Shown piece by piece: positions 1 to 7,420 of a stretch of DNA of 35,203 bases. The notes below the pieces were generated by a model that saw only the letters and a list, made by a program, of their open reading frames with translations, searched no databases and had not been told where the DNA came from. Location: the NCBI GenBank assembly GCA_048884965.1, contig JBHLQH010000003.1, forward strand, positions 1 to 35,203, written 5' to 3'. The stretch is from Candidatus Thorarchaeota archaeon (GTDB taxonomy: Archaea > Asgardarchaeota > Thorarchaeia > Thorarchaeales > Thorarchaeaceae). Both the position numbers and the translations under genes were made by a program. How positions within the stretch are numbered: position 1 is the stretch's first letter; each line of letters begins with the position of its first letter.

Positions 1-1719
1 ATCACTGAAGTGTGCCTTCAGGTCGTCATATGTGACTTCCTCCTTCTGCTCTAGGAGTCTAAGCACAGGCTGAGCAATCGTTTCTAGACGTTCCATAAGG
101 TACTGCTCCATCAACTGCAGGATGTTCTCAAGCTCCCCACGTGTTCTTGATCCTTCAATCATATCTGTGAAGATTCTATTGAAGAACTCTGGATTGAGCT
201 CAAGAGCTTGAGCTGTGGACTCTCTTAGAGGAACGTTCCGATTCAGGAGAACCTCAATGTTCGCCAACCGTCGGATGCCTGGCATCATGAATACTACCGC
301 AAACCGATAGTCCTCCTTGGTATGCATCGCCTTGTACGCCTTGTTTATGAGGTCTTTCGCAAAGACATAGTTTAGAAAGACCAAGTCCTCAAGGTCACGC
401 ACTCCAACATCATGGACCTCCTCAAAGATGTCATAGATGGTGTCATCGCGAGTGAAGAGAACCTTGCTCTTAGAAACATACGAGTTGAACACGCTTCCAT
501 CACGTCTTCGGTTAGCGAGCTTCCGGAAGCTATCCCTTTGCAAGACGAACACATCAAACGAAACATCCATCTCGATAAAGCCTCGGTAATCACTGTACGG
601 TTCATCTTTCGTAATCATGATCGCATCGATATCTGACTTCTCCCAGACCTTGTCGTATGAAAGACTACCACCTAGTGTGACTGTAAGCACATATTCGTCT
701 GACTTTGCTCGTTCTACAAAGGCATCTATGGCTTTCTGATAATCTGCATGTACTCGTTCCCGTTCAACTTGCGCGGGACCTACTTGAGTCGGTATTACCT
801 TGCTTTTATCAAACGAATCCCAGCTAAAGTGGTATTGAGCCTCATTGTATTCTACGACTCCTTTCTTTGTGAGCTTGACAGGAGTCACTGTTCGTCTGAG
901 AATGCGCCGTCTATGTAGATGAGTTAGATCTACTATGAAAGGAAATCCCCTTTGACCAAGATCTACCATTAGATCCGTTTGTGAAGTAGTCCCTCCCTGT
1001 TCGGAAATATGATCAAGTACTGGTTTGTAGATGATCAAGTCCAGCGAGTCCATAAACTCATACACTTTCCGCAATGACTGGTCCATGGACTCTTCTGTCA
1101 ACTCGTTTGCAATCAGGTCATCATAGACTTGGGAATAGAGTTCAGGTTCGAACTCTCTCCCTCGCAGAATGACTTCTCTTGGGGGAAAGACATCGTTGAT
1201 GTAGCAAAGCAAGTATCCTAGCTCGCTCAATGCGTGAATGAGAGAGTGGAAACTGTGCGCAATGTCTTTCTTGATGTAGAGATACTTCTCCGCCTTTGAT
1301 AGGTCATACAGCGTAGCAAGATGATAAAGAATCTGTAGATAATCTCTGTCTCTCTTACCAACGTTCCATAATATACCCTTGAAGAACTCGGTGAAGGAGC
1401 AATCTCGAGAGAAGACAAGCTTGCCAAAAGAGAGGACCTGTAGCATTCCTCTTCCCCGTGTAGACTGTAGTCTTCTCATGAATTCATCGCGGCTGTATAT
1501 CTCGACATCTATGGGAATCCCATACTCGATCATTCTAGTTGTTCTGTGACGCCCCTCATCCGTGATTACATACACATTGATGTTGGAACGCTCTGTGACC
1601 TCATCATATGCCATGCTACCATAGAGTATGATAGCAAGAACTCGCCTGTCTAGCTTTGCACGTTCGATGAAGCTTGATAGTGCGTCATCGAACTGTTTCC
1701 TTACTTGTGGATCTTCCAT
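1..1719 (-). CDS. Tandem-duplicated nucleotidyltransferase (Pol-beta/MNT-like) + helical + winged-helix protein; truncated by the window edge; not in the ORF track
   Basis: Hand translation: ATG at 1719 (alternative 1728), GGAG ~10 nt upstream, 573 codons open to position 1. Repeat 1: FDDALSSFIERAKLDRRVLAIILYGSMAYDEVTERSNINVYVI...YKPVLDHISEQGG. Repeat 2: YQKAIDAFVERAKSDEYVLTVTLGGSLSYDKVWEKSDIDAIMI...AQPVLRLLEQKEE. GS-x10-DxD is the Pol-beta superfamily signature. Confidence 0.9.
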   Translation of the reverse strand, partial: MEDPQVRKQFDDALSSFIERAKLDRRVLAIILYGSMAYDEVTERSNINVYVITDEGRHRTTRMIEYGIPIDVEIYSRDEFMRRLQSTRGRGMLQVLSFGKLVFSRDCSFTEFFKGILWNVGKRDRDYLQILYHLATLYDLSKAEKYLYIKKDIAHSFHSLIHALSELGYLLCYINDVFPPREVILRGREFEPELYSQVYDDLIANELTEESMDQSLRKVYEFMDSLDLIIYKPVLDHISEQGGTTSQTDLMVDLGQRGFPFIVDLTHLHRRRILRRTVTPVKLTKKGVVEYNEAQYHFSWDSFDKSKVIPTQVGPAQVERERVHADYQKAIDAFVERAKSDEYVLTVTLGGSLSYDKVWEKSDIDAIMITKDEPYSDYRGFIEMDVSFDVFVLQRDSFRKLANRRRDGSVFNSYVSKSKVLFTRDDTIYDIFEEVHDVGVRDLEDLVFLNYVFAKDLINKAYKAMHTKEDYRFAVVFMMPGIRRLANIEVLLNRNVPLRESTAQALELNPEFFNRIFTDMIEGSRTRGELENILQLMEQYLMERLETIAQPVLRLLEQKEEVTYDDLKAHFSD

Positions 1720-1737
1720 ATACAACATCTCCTGAGT

Positions 1738-4569
1738 CTAGGAAGACTCCACTATCTTCTGGAGGAACTTGCCAGTGTAAGACTGCTCACACTTGATGAT
1801 GTCATCTACAGTACCCTGAGCAATGATCTCTCCGCCTTCTGCACCACCCTCAGGTCCAAGATCGATGATGTAGTCGGAAGACTTGATAACGTCCATATGA
1901 TGCTCGATAACGATGACCGTGTTACCAGCATCGACGAGCTTGTGGATGGTCTTCAGGAGCATCTGAATATCCTCCATGTGGAGCCCCACAGTAGGCTCGT
2001 CCATGATGTAGAGGTTATCCTTCAGTCGTTTCAGCTTTCCTAGCTCCTTGGCGAGCTTGATGCGTTGGCTCTCACCTCCGCTCAAGGTCGGCGCAGGTTG
2101 TCCCACCTTAAGATAGCCTAATCCGAGATCCATCATGGTCTTCGTCTTGTGGCGAATCAACCGGGTTTCCCTGAAGAACTCGTTCGCTTCCTCAACGGTC
2201 ATGTTGAGTATATCGCCCATATTCTTCCCGTTATACCGGATCTCAAGGATCTCCTCTGAGAATCTCGCGCCTTTGCAAACTGGGCAGACTGTCTGGATGT
2301 CAGGCATGTACTGCAACTCTATGCGCACAAGTCCCTCACCGTTACACTCTGCACAGCGCCCCTCAGTCGAGTTGTAGCTGAATCTACCTAAAGTATATCC
2401 TCTATCTTTCGCTTCGGGCGTGTTCGCATAGATCTCCCTGATCTTGTTGAAGAAGCCTACATATGTAGCTGGGATTGATCGCGAGTGTCTTCCGATGGGT
2501 GACTGGTCAACGATCCGCACGTCTACGATGTTCTCGACGCCTTCTAGTCGGTCCAACTTTCCTGGTATCACACGAGGGTCTCGCATATCATGTAGGAGCT
2601 TGTTGCCAAGCACATCCTCGATTAACGTGCTCTTCCCACTCCCACTGACGCCTGTGATGCAGATGAACACACCTAGCGGGAACTCCACATCAATACCCTT
2701 CAGATTATTCTCGCTGGCACCAAAGACCTTCAGTTTCTTACCATTTGGCTTACGTGCCTTTCCCAGATAGGGAATCTGCTTCTTTCCTGTCAGATAATGC
2801 CCTGTCAAGAACTTCGGCTCATTAAGAATCGCTTCATAGGATCCTTGGGCTACAATCTCTCCGCCATGAACACCTGGTCCAGGACCGATCTCTATGATGT
2901 TGTCCGCCTGCATGATCGTTTCCAAGTCATGCTCTATGACGATAACAGTGTTCCCAGTGTCCCTAAGTCGCTTCAGGATATCAATAATCCTGTTGCTATC
3001 CCGCATATGAAGGCCAATCGAAGGCTCGTCCAGTACATACAGCATGCCCATCAGCTCTGAGCCTAGCTGTGTGGAGAGCTTTATTCTTTGCGCTTCACCT
3101 GCAGATAGTGTCCGAGCTCGTCTGTTGAGTCTGAGATAGTAGAGTCCTATATCATCTAGGAGTTGGATGCGCTTTCTGAGTTCGCTCTTGACTTGATTCC
3201 CTGCCTTCTCCCTGTCCTTATCCGCCTTGATGGAGTCTACGAACTCCAAGAGATGATTGATGAAGTACTCACCTAACTCGTCAATATTCTTACCTTCTAC
3301 TGTGACAAGTAGACGCTGTTTGATGAGTTTCTTCCCATGACAATCAGGACAGATGTTCTCAGCCATAATCTTCCGATACCACTCGTAGCGTTCGCCCTTC
3401 TTTCGGTCATTCCTGTACCATCTGTCTATAGAGTTGCAAATACCTCCATACTTGACCTTCTGTCCGATTGAACGATGTCTGTATTTGTTAGGCCAATCAG
3501 GAGGTTCCTGAAGGATGAACTCTTCCTCGATTCCATAGAAAAGCTGGTGTCGTGCACTTTCAGATATCTCTTCAAAGGGAGTATCAATATCGAATCCGAG
3601 ATGCTCTCCAATACTGAACATCCAGTACTTGGGATACCATGTCAGAGCTCCTTTCCTGATCGTCTTCTTTGGATCTATAATCATCAGGCGAGAGTCTGCC
3701 TTCAATAACGTTCCAACTCCTAGACAGGTTGGACATGAATGGTCTGGTAGATTCGGTGAGAATGCACCTGGAAGAAGCTTGTGCATGATGATATGATGCT
3801 CTTTGCAACCAAAGTCGCCATAGAACCTCTTCTTCACATCTGATGAAGATGATTCATCTACTTCGAATCTGATGAATCCACTTCCCACTCTATTGGCATT
3901 CTCTATTGATATTGCAAATTGATGATACAGGTCTCTCTTTATGATGATACGGTCTACCAAGACTTCTATCCGATAGTCCTTGGACTCATCAAGCTCGATC
4001 TTATCATTGATGCTATAGGCTACATCATCGACTCTGATCCGCTTGTATCCCTTCGTTCGTATATCATCAAAGAGAAAGGTATAGTCTTCATCATAGATCT
4101 TGTTCACAGGAGCAAGTATCTCTACACTTGTCCCCTCTGGCAAGGTCATGAGGTGATCAACAATTTGGTTTGCGTTACGTGTGTGGACCTTCTTGCCACA
4201 GTACGGACAGTGTGTCTGACCCAAGACCGAGAAGAGGATTCTCATGTAGCTTGAGATGTCCGTCATGGTTCCGACAGTCGACCTCGGGTTCACCGTTCCT
4301 GTTCGCTGTTCTATAGCGACGACAGGCGACAGCCCAATGATCGAGTCTACATCTGCTCTCTCAAGCATAGGTAGCATAGTCCGCGAAGTTGCTGACATCG
4401 ATTCGAAGAACTTACGTTGCGCTTCACTAAAAATAACGTCAAAAGCAAGCGAAGTCTTTCCCGACCCCGACACACCGGTAATAACGGTCAACTTGTCGCG
4501 CGGGATGTCCACGTCTATATTTCTAAGATTGTTAGTCCTAGCTCCTTTTACACTAATGCTTTCTCTCAT
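1738..4569 (-). CDS. uvrA: UvrA-family ABC ATPase (divergent excinuclease A homologue)
   Basis: GARTNNLRNIDV start; two Walker A motifs (GVSGSGKTS, GVSGSGKST); signatures LSAGEAQR and LSGGESQR; Walker B DEPSIGLH and DEPTVGLH; Zn-binding CxxC pairs; NPRSTVGT; UvrB-binding-like insertion present. GGAGG SD at 4579-4583. Confidence 0.95.
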   Translation of the reverse strand: MRESISVKGARTNNLRNIDVDIPRDKLTVITGVSGSGKTSLAFDVIFSEAQRKFFESMSATSRTMLPMLERADVDSIIGLSPVVAIEQRTGTVNPRSTVGTMTDISSYMRILFSVLGQTHCPYCGKKVHTRNANQIVDHLMTLPEGTSVEILAPVNKIYDEDYTFLFDDIRTKGYKRIRVDDVAYSINDKIELDESKDYRIEVLVDRIIIKRDLYHQFAISIENANRVGSGFIRFEVDESSSSDVKKRFYGDFGCKEHHIIMHKLLPGAFSPNLPDHSCPTCLGVGTLLKADSRLMIIDPKKTIRKGALTWYPKYWMFSIGEHLGFDIDTPFEEISESARHQLFYGIEEEFILQEPPDWPNKYRHRSIGQKVKYGGICNSIDRWYRNDRKKGERYEWYRKIMAENICPDCHGKKLIKQRLLVTVEGKNIDELGEYFINHLLEFVDSIKADKDREKAGNQVKSELRKRIQLLDDIGLYYLRLNRRARTLSAGEAQRIKLSTQLGSELMGMLYVLDEPSIGLHMRDSNRIIDILKRLRDTGNTVIVIEHDLETIMQADNIIEIGPGPGVHGGEIVAQGSYEAILNEPKFLTGHYLTGKKQIPYLGKARKPNGKKLKVFGASENNLKGIDVEFPLGVFICITGVSGSGKSTLIEDVLGNKLLHDMRDPRVIPGKLDRLEGVENIVDVRIVDQSPIGRHSRSIPATYVGFFNKIREIYANTPEAKDRGYTLGRFSYNSTEGRCAECNGEGLVRIELQYMPDIQTVCPVCKGARFSEEILEIRYNGKNMGDILNMTVEEANEFFRETRLIRHKTKTMMDLGLGYLKVGQPAPTLSGGESQRIKLAKELGKLKRLKDNLYIMDEPTVGLHMEDIQMLLKTIHKLVDAGNTVIVIEHHMDVIKSSDYIIDLGPEGGAEGGEIIAQGTVDDIIKCEQSYTGKFLQKIVESS

Positions 4570-4675
4570 GTCTTCATGCCTCCAATCATCAGTTCTACCC
4601 TGAGTTCAATACGTATTGGCGATCAACGCCAACAACTCGCAACAGGGCCTGATGCTAACTGAGGTCTCTCATGTC
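4562..4675 (-). promoter_or_regulatory. Structured uvrA 5' leader: SD-occluding nested hairpin with uORF MRDLS* (4672-4655), flanked by 11-nt direct repeats
   Basis: mRNA-sense pairings CCU-CAGU/AUUG-(G)-AGG, CAUCAG/CUGAUG, GCCCU/AGGGU, GAGUU/AACUC, GUUGGCG/CGCCAAU span 4664-4579. GACATGAGAGA occurs at 4675-4665 and 4572-4562. TTATAT box at ~4712-4707. Confidence 0.6.
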
Positions 4676-4918
4676 GATGAGTAGTCGTAGGTGAATCCGA
4701 GAACACATATAATAGAGCTGTTCAACGTAAGTACATCATCACGTTTGGGCATATGACTTTTGGCAAAATGAGTAGATTTTGCGCATTCCAGCGCTTAGCC
4801 ATCCGTACAGCTGTAATTTAAATCCCGGCAAGCCAATTATGGATATGTTTTTGCTAGGCCAATAAGTGTGCTAAGGGAGGTAGGGAACTTCCTGAGCACA
4901 TTGATTCCTTTTCCCCTA

Positions 4919-7420
4919 ATGGAGGATAAGAAATTGAAGCTAGTGAAGTCAAGTGTGATATTGATTTTGGTATTGATATTGTGCAGTTCAATATTGATGT
5001 TTGGTGGAGAACTGACGAACAAGATCATCATTAGCACAAAACCTGTTAGTCTAAGTGCTGGAGATCCGCCAATAGAGATAGCTGGCGATGTTGAATTCAA
5101 TACAACAGCCTTTGCCAACGGATGGAGCGGTAATGGGACCGAAATCAACCCGTATATCATCGAATATCAAGTAATCGACAAGGCTTTTGGACAAGGGCCG
5201 TGTATCAATATTAGTGATACTAGAGCCTATTTCATTATTCGATATTGTGACCTTCGATACGCAACTTACTATCTGAATGGTGCGGGAGTCTACCTAACTA
5301 ATGTCACCAATGGTCAAATTGTTCAGAATACAATCTTCTATAATGAATATGGAATCTACATGTCCTCCTGTCAAGACATTGTTGTGTTCAACAACTCAAT
5401 GTCTTCCATAGATCGTGCAGGACTTTCTCTCTTCAGCTCAAGTTCACTAACTATCGAAAACAATACTATGGATGCAGGGATTGAATTCTGGTGGAGTCAT
5501 TCGAATATCTTGGTAAACAACACACTGGCAGTCGATGGCTTTGATTTCGTCGGATACTATACGGGCGATTTTACGCAGAGTTTTGTTGACGATAATACAG
5601 TCAGTGGAAAGCCCATCATCTTCTGGCAGCATCAAATTGGTGGGACTGTTCCGACTGATGCTGGTCAAGTAATTCTTTTGAACTGTTCAGAATACACTGT
5701 ACGCGATCAGATAATCGACTCGTCGAAAAATGGTATTGACATTATTCGATGCACTGAGATTACAGTAACCAACAACACTCTAACAGGATGCTATAGAGGG
5801 ATTCGCCTCTGCTATTCGCAATCTATAGAAGTTTTCGAGAACAATTGTACTGCAAACAGTCGTTGGGGTATATATCTAGATTCAACATCGGACTCTGAGA
5901 TTCAATACAACCTATGCCAGAATCATTTTAGCTCCGGGTTAGGGGTCGGAATCTATGCCACCACAAGTGAAAACATAACGATTTCTGAGAATAATTGCAC
6001 AACGAATGATGTTGGCATTGAAACCTATTCAAATACCCAGAAATGTAAGATCTTTGATAATATTTGCAATGAGAATTCTCGTGGGATCTCAATGCAGATG
6101 TCTAGGTTGAATGAGGTCTTTGAAAATGAAGTGGTATGGAATACACAATATGGGGTGGTCATCTATAGTCCCTCTGATGACAACATGATAATGAATAACA
6201 ACTTGTCAGAAAATCCACGTGGTGTGTATCTGTCGAACTGTCCTCAGAACCACATCATCAACAACTCGATTTCTGCATCGCACGTAAGCGGGTCCTATGG
6301 AGTCTACGTTTCTGGTGGTTCTGAAGGCCATGTCATTTTTGACAATAAGATTCAGTTCGTAAATTGCGCGATATATCTGAAAGATTCTCTCTATAATACA
6401 CTGAGCTACAATAATCTCACACAGAACAATCTATCTATCTACCTTATCTCGTCAAATCACACCACAATCGCTCATAATCTTCTAGATGGGGGCGATGATA
6501 TCGGCCTCTATATGGAATCAAACACCTGCGACAATGAGATGACTTGGAATGTCTTCAATGATTGTGACATCAACGCTATTGATGATGGTTCTGATTCACT
6601 CTTTGATTACAATTACTGGAGCAACTATACAGGTATTGATGCTGATAGCGATGGAATTGGGGATACGCCACATCCGATTCAGGGCATTGCAGATAACTCT
6701 GATGCGCACCCAGTTGTTGTACTTCCAGAGACGCCAGTGTGGATGAATGGTCCTGAGGATCAGGTTCTCGAATTTGGCGAATCTTTCCACTACGACCTTA
6801 ACGCCACAGTAAGTACGGTTATAGGTGGGTGGAGTCTAAGTGATATGACGGACTTTACTATCAATTCCGAGGGGGTCATTACAAATATCACCTCTCTCTC
6901 AGTTGGTATCTATCCTCTCTATGTTGATGTTTTTGATATATATGGAATGACTCTCACTGGATTCTTTATTCTTGAAGTAGAAGACACCACATCTCCTTCT
7001 TGGGTATCGGTTCCAGAAAATCAGATTCTAGATTACGACGAGTCATTCTCATACCAGCTCGAAGCATTTGATCTTTCAGGAATTCATACTTGGTATCTCA
7101 ACAATACATCCGAGTTCTCCATTAACAACTCCGGTTTGATAACTAATAATACAATGCTTGCACCAGGGGTATACCATCTCTATGTAGAAGCTTCAGATGT
7201 GTATGGCAATCTAGTTAGTGCCACATTTGATGTGATTGTTCAAGAATCAACTACTACAACTACAGCCACAAGCACCAGTACAACTACATCAACTTCAACA
7301 CACTCAACGACACCCACTCAGCCACCCTTTTTGCTAGACCCCACACTGTTAATGGTTCTGGGAATAGGTGCAGCTGCTTTCGTCATTGTGATAGTATTAG
7401 TCCTTCGAAAACGGGCATAA
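4919..7420 (+). CDS. Cell-surface protein: NosD/CASH right-handed beta-helix, two cadherin/Ig-like repeats, Thr/Ser linker, C-terminal TM anchor
   Basis: Likely start MEDKKLK at 4919 (track starts 4868). Signal peptide; GNGTEINPYIIE; many GI-x-L...NN beta-helix turns; NYWSNYTGIDADSDGIGDTP; two 87-aa repeats; TTTTTATSTST linker; FVIVIVLVLRKRA end. Confidence 0.88.
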   Translation: MEDKKLKLVKSSVILILVLILCSSILMFGGELTNKIIISTKPVSLSAGDPPIEIAGDVEFNTTAFANGWSGNGTEINPYIIEYQVIDKAFGQGPCINISDTRAYFIIRYCDLRYATYYLNGAGVYLTNVTNGQIVQNTIFYNEYGIYMSSCQDIVVFNNSMSSIDRAGLSLFSSSSLTIENNTMDAGIEFWWSHSNILVNNTLAVDGFDFVGYYTGDFTQSFVDDNTVSGKPIIFWQHQIGGTVPTDAGQVILLNCSEYTVRDQIIDSSKNGIDIIRCTEITVTNNTLTGCYRGIRLCYSQSIEVFENNCTANSRWGIYLDSTSDSEIQYNLCQNHFSSGLGVGIYATTSENITISENNCTTNDVGIETYSNTQKCKIFDNICNENSRGISMQMSRLNEVFENEVVWNTQYGVVIYSPSDDNMIMNNNLSENPRGVYLSNCPQNHIINNSISASHVSGSYGVYVSGGSEGHVIFDNKIQFVNCAIYLKDSLYNTLSYNNLTQNNLSIYLISSNHTTIAHNLLDGGDDIGLYMESNTCDNEMTWNVFNDCDINAIDDGSDSLFDYNYWSNYTGIDADSDGIGDTPHPIQGIADNSDAHPVVVLPETPVWMNGPEDQVLEFGESFHYDLNATVSTVIGGWSLSDMTDFTINSEGVITNITSLSVGIYPLYVDVFDIYGMTLTGFFILEVEDTTSPSWVSVPENQILDYDESFSYQLEAFDLSGIHTWYLNNTSEFSINNSGLITNNTMLAPGVYHLYVEASDVYGNLVSATFDVIVQESTTTTTATSTSTTTSTSTHSTTPTQPPFLLDPTLLMVLGIGAAAFVIVIVLVLRKRA
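6734..7246 (+). repeat. Two tandem ~87-aa cadherin-like/Ig-like domains within the surface protein
   Basis: PVWMNGPEDQVLEFGESFHYDLNA...FTINSEGVITN...GIYPLYVDVFDIYG aligns with PSWVSVPENQILDYDESFSYQLEA...FSINNSGLITN...GVYHLYVEASDVYG; the period is 261 nt. Confidence 0.8.

Follow-up and report, generated by a model that had tools for sequence, protein, structure and literature searches.

A structured RNA leader was found in front of a uvrA gene in the window, by which we mean the whole stretch of 35,203 nucleotides analysed here from a Candidatus Thorarchaeota archaeon (assembly GCA_048884965.1, contig JBHLQH010000003.1, positions 1 to 35,203 of the forward strand). An accessory operon of bacterial type, made up of uvrA and a nucleotidyltransferase gene, probably has its 5' leader at 4570-4682 on the minus strand. 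This leader would be a cis-acting RNA element specific to the lineage, with the ribosome-binding site (RBS) built into a defined fold. In the proposed model, an invariant CCUC would be placed opposite the GAGG of the Shine-Dalgarno (SD) sequence by a long and imperfect hairpin, whose stems covary and whose apex drifts freely. A 5'-terminal “arm” (CUCAU) could take either of two partners, a “decoy” of the start region next to it or the true start codon together with the preceding spacer. The leader would most likely set and modulate the initiation of uvrA translation. The positions of all parts are listed in Table 1.

Fold of the uvrA leader

The original prediction, made from the letters of this DNA, described a hairpin that sequesters the SD of uvrA and is overlapped by a five-codon upstream frame. 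The GGAGG (4583-4579), the CCUC (4664-4661) and the frame (4672-4655) were all confirmed as it had written them. Its five nested helices were also recovered by RNAfold, as CCUC/GAGG, CAUCAG/CUGAUG (H4), GCCCUG/CAGGGU (H5), a 3-bp helix and an 8-bp apical stem, but the basal helix was 4 bp long instead of 7-8 bp. The hairpin alone (4578-4665, minus strand) had a folding energy of -34.0 kcal/mol with a z-score of -3.81, better than its shuffles as had been expected, with none of 200 shuffled sequences reaching so low a value. When the leader was folded from its predicted transcript start (4558-4686), the energy was -41.4 kcal/mol with a z-score of -3.37, and again none of the 200 shuffles was as low. 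The 151-nt span of the original prediction gave a z-score of only -1.77 because it includes promoter DNA. On the plus strand, the hairpin span folded at only -24.6 kcal/mol (z-score -2.46), and G-U pairs at several positions were tolerated only on the uvrA strand, in agreement with the claim that these pairs favor the uvrA transcript. Among 146 genes of the genome with GGAGG located 7-10 nt before ATG, the uvrA region from -115 to +15 had the lowest minimum free energy (MFE), -41.4 kcal/mol against a mean of -27.3 with a standard deviation of 5.7. The Rfam covariance models, the search of which had been proposed together with the hairpin, gave no match on the leader at E-values up to 10. A kink-turn motif bound by L7Ae at the AGAGA bulge was considered and rejected by inspection, as the required GA on the opposite strand was missing.

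Conservation of the fold in orthologous leaders

Seventeen distinct orthologous leaders, 11 from genomes of the same family and six from metagenome contigs found by a pattern scan, were brought into one alignment, and the fold was kept in all of them. The covariation expected by the original prediction was present in the upper stems, and the SD pairing itself was kept in 17/17 leaders. Changes on both sides were found in two of the six pairs of H4 and in five of the six pairs of H5, with the compensatory variants CACCAG/CUGGUG, CAUCAU/AUGGUG, GCACU/AGUGU and GCCACU/AGUGGU. Altogether eight pairs carried changes on both sides, and the observed values were reached by none of 500 shuffles. For the full “rod” structure described below, 91.9% of the cells of the alignment could pair, compared with 35-46% when the partners were slid against each other. 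The mean identity between genomes was 0.78 in the basal leader, 0.36 in the apical domain and 0.43 at fourfold-degenerate sites of uvrA, where it is near saturation. By this comparison, the basal value of 0.78 against 0.43 is the mark of selection on the RNA and not of recent ancestry. The conserved pairing and the covarying stems thus support what had been claimed at the outset, a transcribed and structured leader on the uvrA strand with the SD paired at its base. An internal promoter in the hairpin was rejected: the candidate box, ATACGTAT at ~4616-4609, was weak and not conserved in the other leaders, and both strands of the covarying stems need to be transcribed.

A covariance model of the leader (R1) was searched against the genomes of the family and, in the rest of the phylum, against 125 genomes belonging to 26 families. 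In the genome under study, R1 matched at 4558-4689 with 103.7 bits, and this was the sole match in the genome. The same held in the family, with one match per genome, always before the accessory uvrA (11 of 86 genomes), and nothing credible was found in the 125 Asgard genomes of the other 26 families. A repeat or mobile element, such as an inverted repeat of the miniature inverted-repeat transposable element kind ending at the start codon, was excluded because the intergenic DNA was unique in the genome and only one R1 copy was present per genome.

Promoter and Shine-Dalgarno site

A TATA-like box was present in all of the leaders, and its first T was located 30-34 nt upstream of the C of the CUCA core in 17/17 of them. 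Archaeal TATA boxes are centered near -26/-27 relative to the transcript start. From the box and this spacing rule, we infer that the uvrA transcript starts at the A at ~4682, close to the position near 4685 that had been guessed; the conserved TATA box lies at 4714-4707. The DNA farther upstream of the promoter and the neighboring genes were unrelated between genomes, and therefore promoter, leader and operon travel together. A further conserved box, (C)TGAGACCAAA or TTGAACAG, was seen in most leaders ~9 nt upstream of the TATA box, at ~4725-4735 (minus strand) in the window; it is similar to the leader's own TGAGA-ACC and may be a B recognition element together with a regulator site.

The SD of uvrA is real. 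In a crude set of 2545 long open reading frames (ORFs) from the genome under study, GGAGG peaked 7-10 nt before ATG (49, 41, 31 and 26 cases at the four distances against a background of ~3), so that 147 of the 2545 ORFs carried it there, and the spacing in uvrA is 9 nt. The 3' end of the 16S rRNA was not found in this metagenome-assembled genome (MAG), and the ribosomal anti-SD sequence was thus not read directly. SD sequences were described as rare in Lokiarchaea in reviews (PMC12993045, PMC7531240). The Thorarchaeote studied here plainly uses GGAGG at bacterial-type spacing, and a structured leader with a decoy start appears to have evolved around the SD of an acquired repair-type operon. 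A three-codon frame, AUG AAG ACA UGA at 4566-4577 (minus strand), begins 1 nt after the SD and overlaps the uvrA start by AUGA; it was present in 14/17 leaders and is probably just the strand of a CAUG helix.

Two predicted alternative folds and the proposed decoy start

The 5' part of the leader contained a second copy of the uvrA start region. An 11-nt direct repeat, GACATGAGAGA, was located at 4665-4675 and at 4562-4572, whereas only 0.09 such repeats were expected by chance. In every leader, a “decoy” of the form (A/G)UGAGA(G/A)A was found just upstream of CCUC, mirroring the true start AUGAGAGA, which was invariant in 17/17 leaders. The decoy was identical to the coding-constrained true start at 6-7 of seven positions in every lineage. 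Such identity is expected if the arm must fit both partners, and the conservation of the decoy suggests, as indirect support drawn from the alignment, a two-state element.

The CUCA core of the arm was able to pair with the UGAG of the decoy or with the UGAG of the start codon in 17/17 leaders, and the two pairings are mutually exclusive. The RNAalifold consensus contained the local hairpin of arm and decoy, the big hairpin, and a CAUG/CAUG mini-hairpin on the start codon. The single-sequence MFE structure of 15/17 leaders was a closed rod, in which the arm paired with the start codon and the next segment with the spacer between SD and AUG; the spacer helix of this rod showed one compensatory change, in genome G003. 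The whole-leader folds had energies of -26 to -47 kcal/mol, and the gap between the two folds was -4.0 to +0.6 kcal/mol across all 17 leaders, with a mean of -1.9. The barrier between them, computed with findpath, was ~9-11 kcal/mol.

The two folds would hold the RBS differently. In the arm-decoy state, the arm would be taken up in a local 5' hairpin, and the RBS would be held only by the 4-bp SD helix and the 4-bp mini-hairpin. In the arm-start state, the closed rod would clamp SD, spacer and AUG together. On nascent transcripts, the 5' hairpin would form first and leave a more open RBS, with a later exchange for the clamped rod; if a trans-acting factor held the 5' strand, the balance between the folds would shift. 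Whether the leader is a true bistable translational switch is a more tentative matter. In such a switch, the 5' arm would toggle between the decoy and the real start region, and the output would depend on how long the nascent transcript stays in the open fold or on a factor holding the arm (an RNA, a protein or a 5'-proximal ribosome). We regard this as possible but doubtful. If true, it would be the first covariation-supported, SD-masking riboregulator in the prokaryotic lineage closest to eukaryotes.

Accessibility of the ribosome-binding site

Several results weighed against a leader that controls uvrA by masking its RBS. Because the SD helix, arm, decoy and start were all invariant, covariation is silent on those pairings and gives no preference for either fold. 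Opening the region from GGAGG to AUG+5 was predicted to cost 5.6-10.3 kcal/mol across the leaders, which was not above the average of the genes led by GGAGG (7.3 +/- 2.7 kcal/mol); uvrA ranked 74th of 146. When the upstream part was dinucleotide-shuffled, 35-116 of 150 shuffles were at least as costly to open. An unusually strong occlusion of the RBS was not found in these comparisons with the genome average and with shuffled sequences, and equilibrium thermodynamics does not single out the uvrA RBS as unusually occluded. Blocking the decoy in silico raised the opening cost by 1-4 kcal/mol. Since occlusion is not maximized, the fold appears as one specific, moderate and exchangeable mask, and we conclude that the leader would act as a tuning or regulated element and not as a lock. 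Other genes of the genome led by GGAGG were predicted to be far more occluded, among them genes on contig 97 (plus strand, start ~1780) and contig 1 (plus strand, start ~196744); among these more occluded genes, one had an opening cost of 16.2 kcal/mol and another had SD and AUG both paired at 0.99 or above.

Alternative explanations

The fold may have been selected mainly for mRNA stability, for processing or for protein binding, as a 5'-terminal helix that guards against 5'-end-dependent decay or as a platform for an operon-encoded protein, with the masking of the SD being incidental. Both folds place a helix no more than 2-5 nt from the predicted 5' end, and the ordinary opening cost of the RBS fits this explanation. 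The conserved nucleotidyltransferase next to uvrA (5/6 loci) also counts for it, as does the precedent of a methanogen in which processing of the 5' untranslated region (UTR) stabilizes transcripts and activates translation (PMC5499594). However, a stability hairpin does not need the SD and the start codon as its helix strands, and it was precisely the CCUC/GAGG and arm/start pairings that were kept in 17/17 leaders, while the rest drifted. We therefore consider it unlikely. Even if the masking were incidental, the leader would still be a new conserved RNA motif absent from Rfam.

Leader-peptide attenuation of the ermC/cat type, which the original prediction had favored, was judged less probable still. 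In this mechanism, a ribosome translating or stalling on the frame from 4672 would unwind CCUC and free the SD. The geometry was suitable in the window: the anti-SD (4664-4661) includes the fourth codon of the frame, CUC, and a ribosome at this codon would unwind both the SD helix and the stem that follows. AUG or GUG was present at the frame start position in 17/17 leaders, and the leader structure did not open by itself in silico, which makes an active unwinder attractive. The frame itself, however, was not conserved. Its start was AUG in four leaders and GUG in 13; its length was five codons in 3/17 leaders and 14-30 codons in 11/17, and in 3/17 it ran in frame into uvrA; and all three frames relative to uvrA (0, 1 and 2) occurred. 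No SD-like motif was located upstream of the short frame, and with ~10-13 nt between the predicted 5' end and its start, the distance is too great for leaderless initiation. The frame start was base-paired in both predicted folds, and the alternation of A and G is explained equally well by A-U and G-U pairing. Only the first four codons were conserved, as explained by the helix strands, and no conserved peptide, stall motif or stop was present. A coding N-terminal extension of UvrA was also rejected, because the open frame through the leader existed only in G068, G011 and the metagenome contig leader L170 and was broken elsewhere. In these three leaders (L096 and L098 of G068 and G011, and L170), the GUG frame was open into uvrA, and initiation there would add ~30 residues.

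An RNA thermometer, in which the SD helix melts on warming, was very unlikely. The SD does lie in a short imperfect helix, 4 bp of CCUC/GAGG between internal loops, and the ROSE and fourU thermometers likewise hold the SD in a short helix flanked by internal loops. The cost of opening was also greater at 15 °C than at 37 °C. Yet the in silico pairing probability of GAGG stayed at or above 0.9 over 5-55 °C in 14/17 leaders, the total fold of -26 to -47 kcal/mol counts against melting, and uvrA, in an archaeon from sediment, encodes an ATPase for repair and is neither a heat-shock nor a virulence gene. The temperature release of the SD that had been suggested is thus unlikely. Release by a ligand, suggested at the same time, is unlikely as well, since the apical domain was not conserved in sequence (identity 0.36). 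A riboswitch is unlikely on similar grounds: there was no conserved aptamer core, the apex varying in sequence and length, no Rfam match was obtained, and the conserved parts were the helix strands around the RBS.

It is also very unlikely that the 5' mini-hairpin is a DNA palindrome at the transcription start, the operator of a dimeric repressor, and not an RNA structure: CTCA-N5-7-TGAG does lie at ~+1 to +20 of the predicted start, and TTCTCA-N4-7-TGAGAA occurred 6-11 times per genome against 1-5 times for a reversed control, but this excess is small and was counted over the whole genome, the half-site spacer varied between 5, 6 and 7 nt from leader to leader (acceptable in a hairpin loop but usually not in a dimeric operator), and the covarying downstream stems are left without an account.

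Comparison with known regulatory leaders

For an RNA leader that embeds the RBS, the closest known system in logic is the maturation-gene 5' UTR of Levivirus (MS2), in which a metastable 5' hairpin delays the long-distance pairing that closes the ribosome site (PMC4615214). There, an upstream complementary strand closes the ribosome site at equilibrium and a local 5' hairpin captures that strand first, which leaves the nascent RNA some time for translation, and the uvrA leader would do the same. As in MS2, one upstream strand of the uvrA leader had two conserved and mutually exclusive predicted pairings, a local one and a long-range one with the RBS. The uvrA leader differs in that CCUC serves as a separate partner for its SD, which is paired in both predicted folds; what the switching arm addresses is the start codon and the spacer, not the SD. 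Its two folds are also near-equal in energy with a modest computed barrier (~9-11 kcal/mol), and it belongs to a cellular archaeal mRNA and not to a phage genome.

Type I toxin mRNAs of the hok family are of the same metastable anti-SD kind. In the aapA1 toxin mRNA of H. pylori, successive metastable anti-SD hairpins occur together with 5'-3' closure (PMC6733600). These mRNAs share with the uvrA leader the short upstream anti-SD tracts, which mask the SD by forming alternative helices with it, some local and some long-range; their antisense RNA partner, toxin gene and relief by 3'-end processing have no visible counterpart at uvrA. Attenuators of the ermC/cat type likewise sequester the SD in a hairpin and have a short upstream frame that overlaps the 5' strand of this hairpin, but the uvrA leader lacks a conserved peptide, an RBS for the frame, a conserved stop and the inducer logic. 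The rpoS mRNA of E. coli has a self-inhibitory leader that is opened by the small RNAs DsrA, RprA and ArcZ. By analogy, the long leader hairpin that pairs the RBS with an upstream strand would be comparable in the two, and relief would need the sequestering of that strand.

The original prediction had remarked that control of this kind is poorly described in archaea, which is fair, but RBS-masking stem-loops were already predicted in the long 5' UTRs of Methanolobus psychrophilus (PMC5378194). Like the uvrA mRNA, those are archaeal and SD-led, and their long leaders were predicted to mask the RBS. They differ in being single-genome predictions tied to alternative transcription starts, whereas the uvrA leader has cross-lineage covariation, one promoter and an Asgard host. 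We file the uvrA leader as a new, previously undescribed member of the cis-regulatory leaders that embed the RBS, and place it neither with the ermC-type attenuators nor with riboswitches or thermometers. Knowledge of post-transcriptional control in Asgard archaea is scarce, and an element that is small (~113 nt), single-copy and backed by covariation could serve as a test object for how eukaryotic-type archaeal ribosomes deal with a masked SD.

Operon and genome context

The product of uvrA scored 1093.9 bits against TIGR00630 (cut-off 729.8). Its adjacency to the nucleotidyltransferase gene was kept in 5/6 of the orthologous loci examined. PADLOC gave only partial matches in the two proteins, mad3/mad8 for the C-terminal half of UvrA and PDC-S09 for the nucleotidyltransferase. 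The genome under study is a MAG of 99 contigs with 95.7% completeness, and it contained four full-length UvrA genes above the TIGR00630 cut-off and one double UvrA of 1647 aa. A canonical uvrB-uvrA-uvrA' cluster is located on contig 14 (36678-44334), and the uvrA of the window is thus an extra copy; further UvrA paralogues were found on contig 4 (91157-100796). This type of uvrA was present in 11 of the 86 genomes of the family. The closest uvrA loci in public genomes were from Candidatus Thorarchaeota and Promethearchaeota MAGs, and in three of the public loci the leader was identical to that of the family members G068, G065 and G087. The nearest non-archaeal relatives were bacterial, with 56-57% identity (Paenibacillus, Chthonomonadales). 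With bacterial relatives, a canonical uvr cluster elsewhere and a tandem nucleotidyltransferase, the leader therefore serves an accessory, bacterial-type, horizontally acquired two-gene operon. Inheritance of the leader from a bacterial donor was rejected, as the leader was absent from the nearest bacterial uvrA loci, which have an ORF upstream.

Table 1. Positions of the uvrA leader, its parts and neighboring features in the window (loci L184-L186 lie in other genomes of the family)
Feature	Position	Strand	Remarks
uvrA	1738-4569	-	943 aa; Pfam UvrA_inter and UvrA_DNA-bind domains
Predicted uvrA 5' leader, ~113 nt	4570-4682	-	Covariance-model match, fold z-score, 17 orthologues; 5' end inferred
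Predicted TATA box (TATTATAT) of the uvrA promoter	4707-4714	-	TATA-like box in 17/17 leaders
5' arm CUCAU	4677-4681	-	CUCA core invariant in 17/17; complementary to both UGAG copies
Decoy copy of the start region (AUGAGAGA)	4665-4672	-	UGAGA invariant in 17/17; first codons of the originally predicted upstream ORF
Five-codon frame AUG AGA GAC CUC AGU UAG (MRDLS*)	4655-4672	-	Present in the window; not conserved as an ORF
Anti-SD CCUC	4661-4664	-	Invariant; paired with GAGG in 17/17 (100% of cells)
5' strands of H4 (CAUCAG) and H5 (GCCCUG)	4643-4654	-	Covarying
Apical domain	4603-4642	-	Sequence and length vary between lineages; hairpin predicted in every leader
3' strands of H5 (CAGGGU) and H4 (CUGAUG), internal loop AGAA between	4587-4602	-	
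Shine-Dalgarno GGAGG	4579-4583	-	9 nt before the AUG at 4569
Spacer CAUGAAGAC and uvrA start AUGAGAGA	4562-4578	-	Pairs with the 5' arm or in the CAUG/CAUG mini-hairpin, depending on the fold
Tandem nucleotidyltransferase gene	1-1728	-	Directly downstream of the uvrA stop
Divergent NosD/beta-helix gene	start 4868		
Leader relics in family genomes without this uvrA	L184:1429-1564; L185:3431-3545; L186:1552-1643	+; -; +	~40-nt core, 90-95% identity

Weak R1 matches in three further genomes of the family (G064, G061 and G056) were deletion relics that had kept the promoter together with the leader's 5' half but had lost the SD and uvrA; an interpretation as leaders of other genes was rejected for that reason. 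The relic of G061 abuts the C-terminal end of the nucleotidyltransferase gene. From the relics and this junction, it follows that the two-gene operon was deleted repeatedly. Upstream of the leader, two weak Rfam matches resembling C/D-box snoRNAs (4946-5036; E-values 2.2 and 6.9, far under the gathering scores) fell inside the start of the NosD-like gene and are probably noise.

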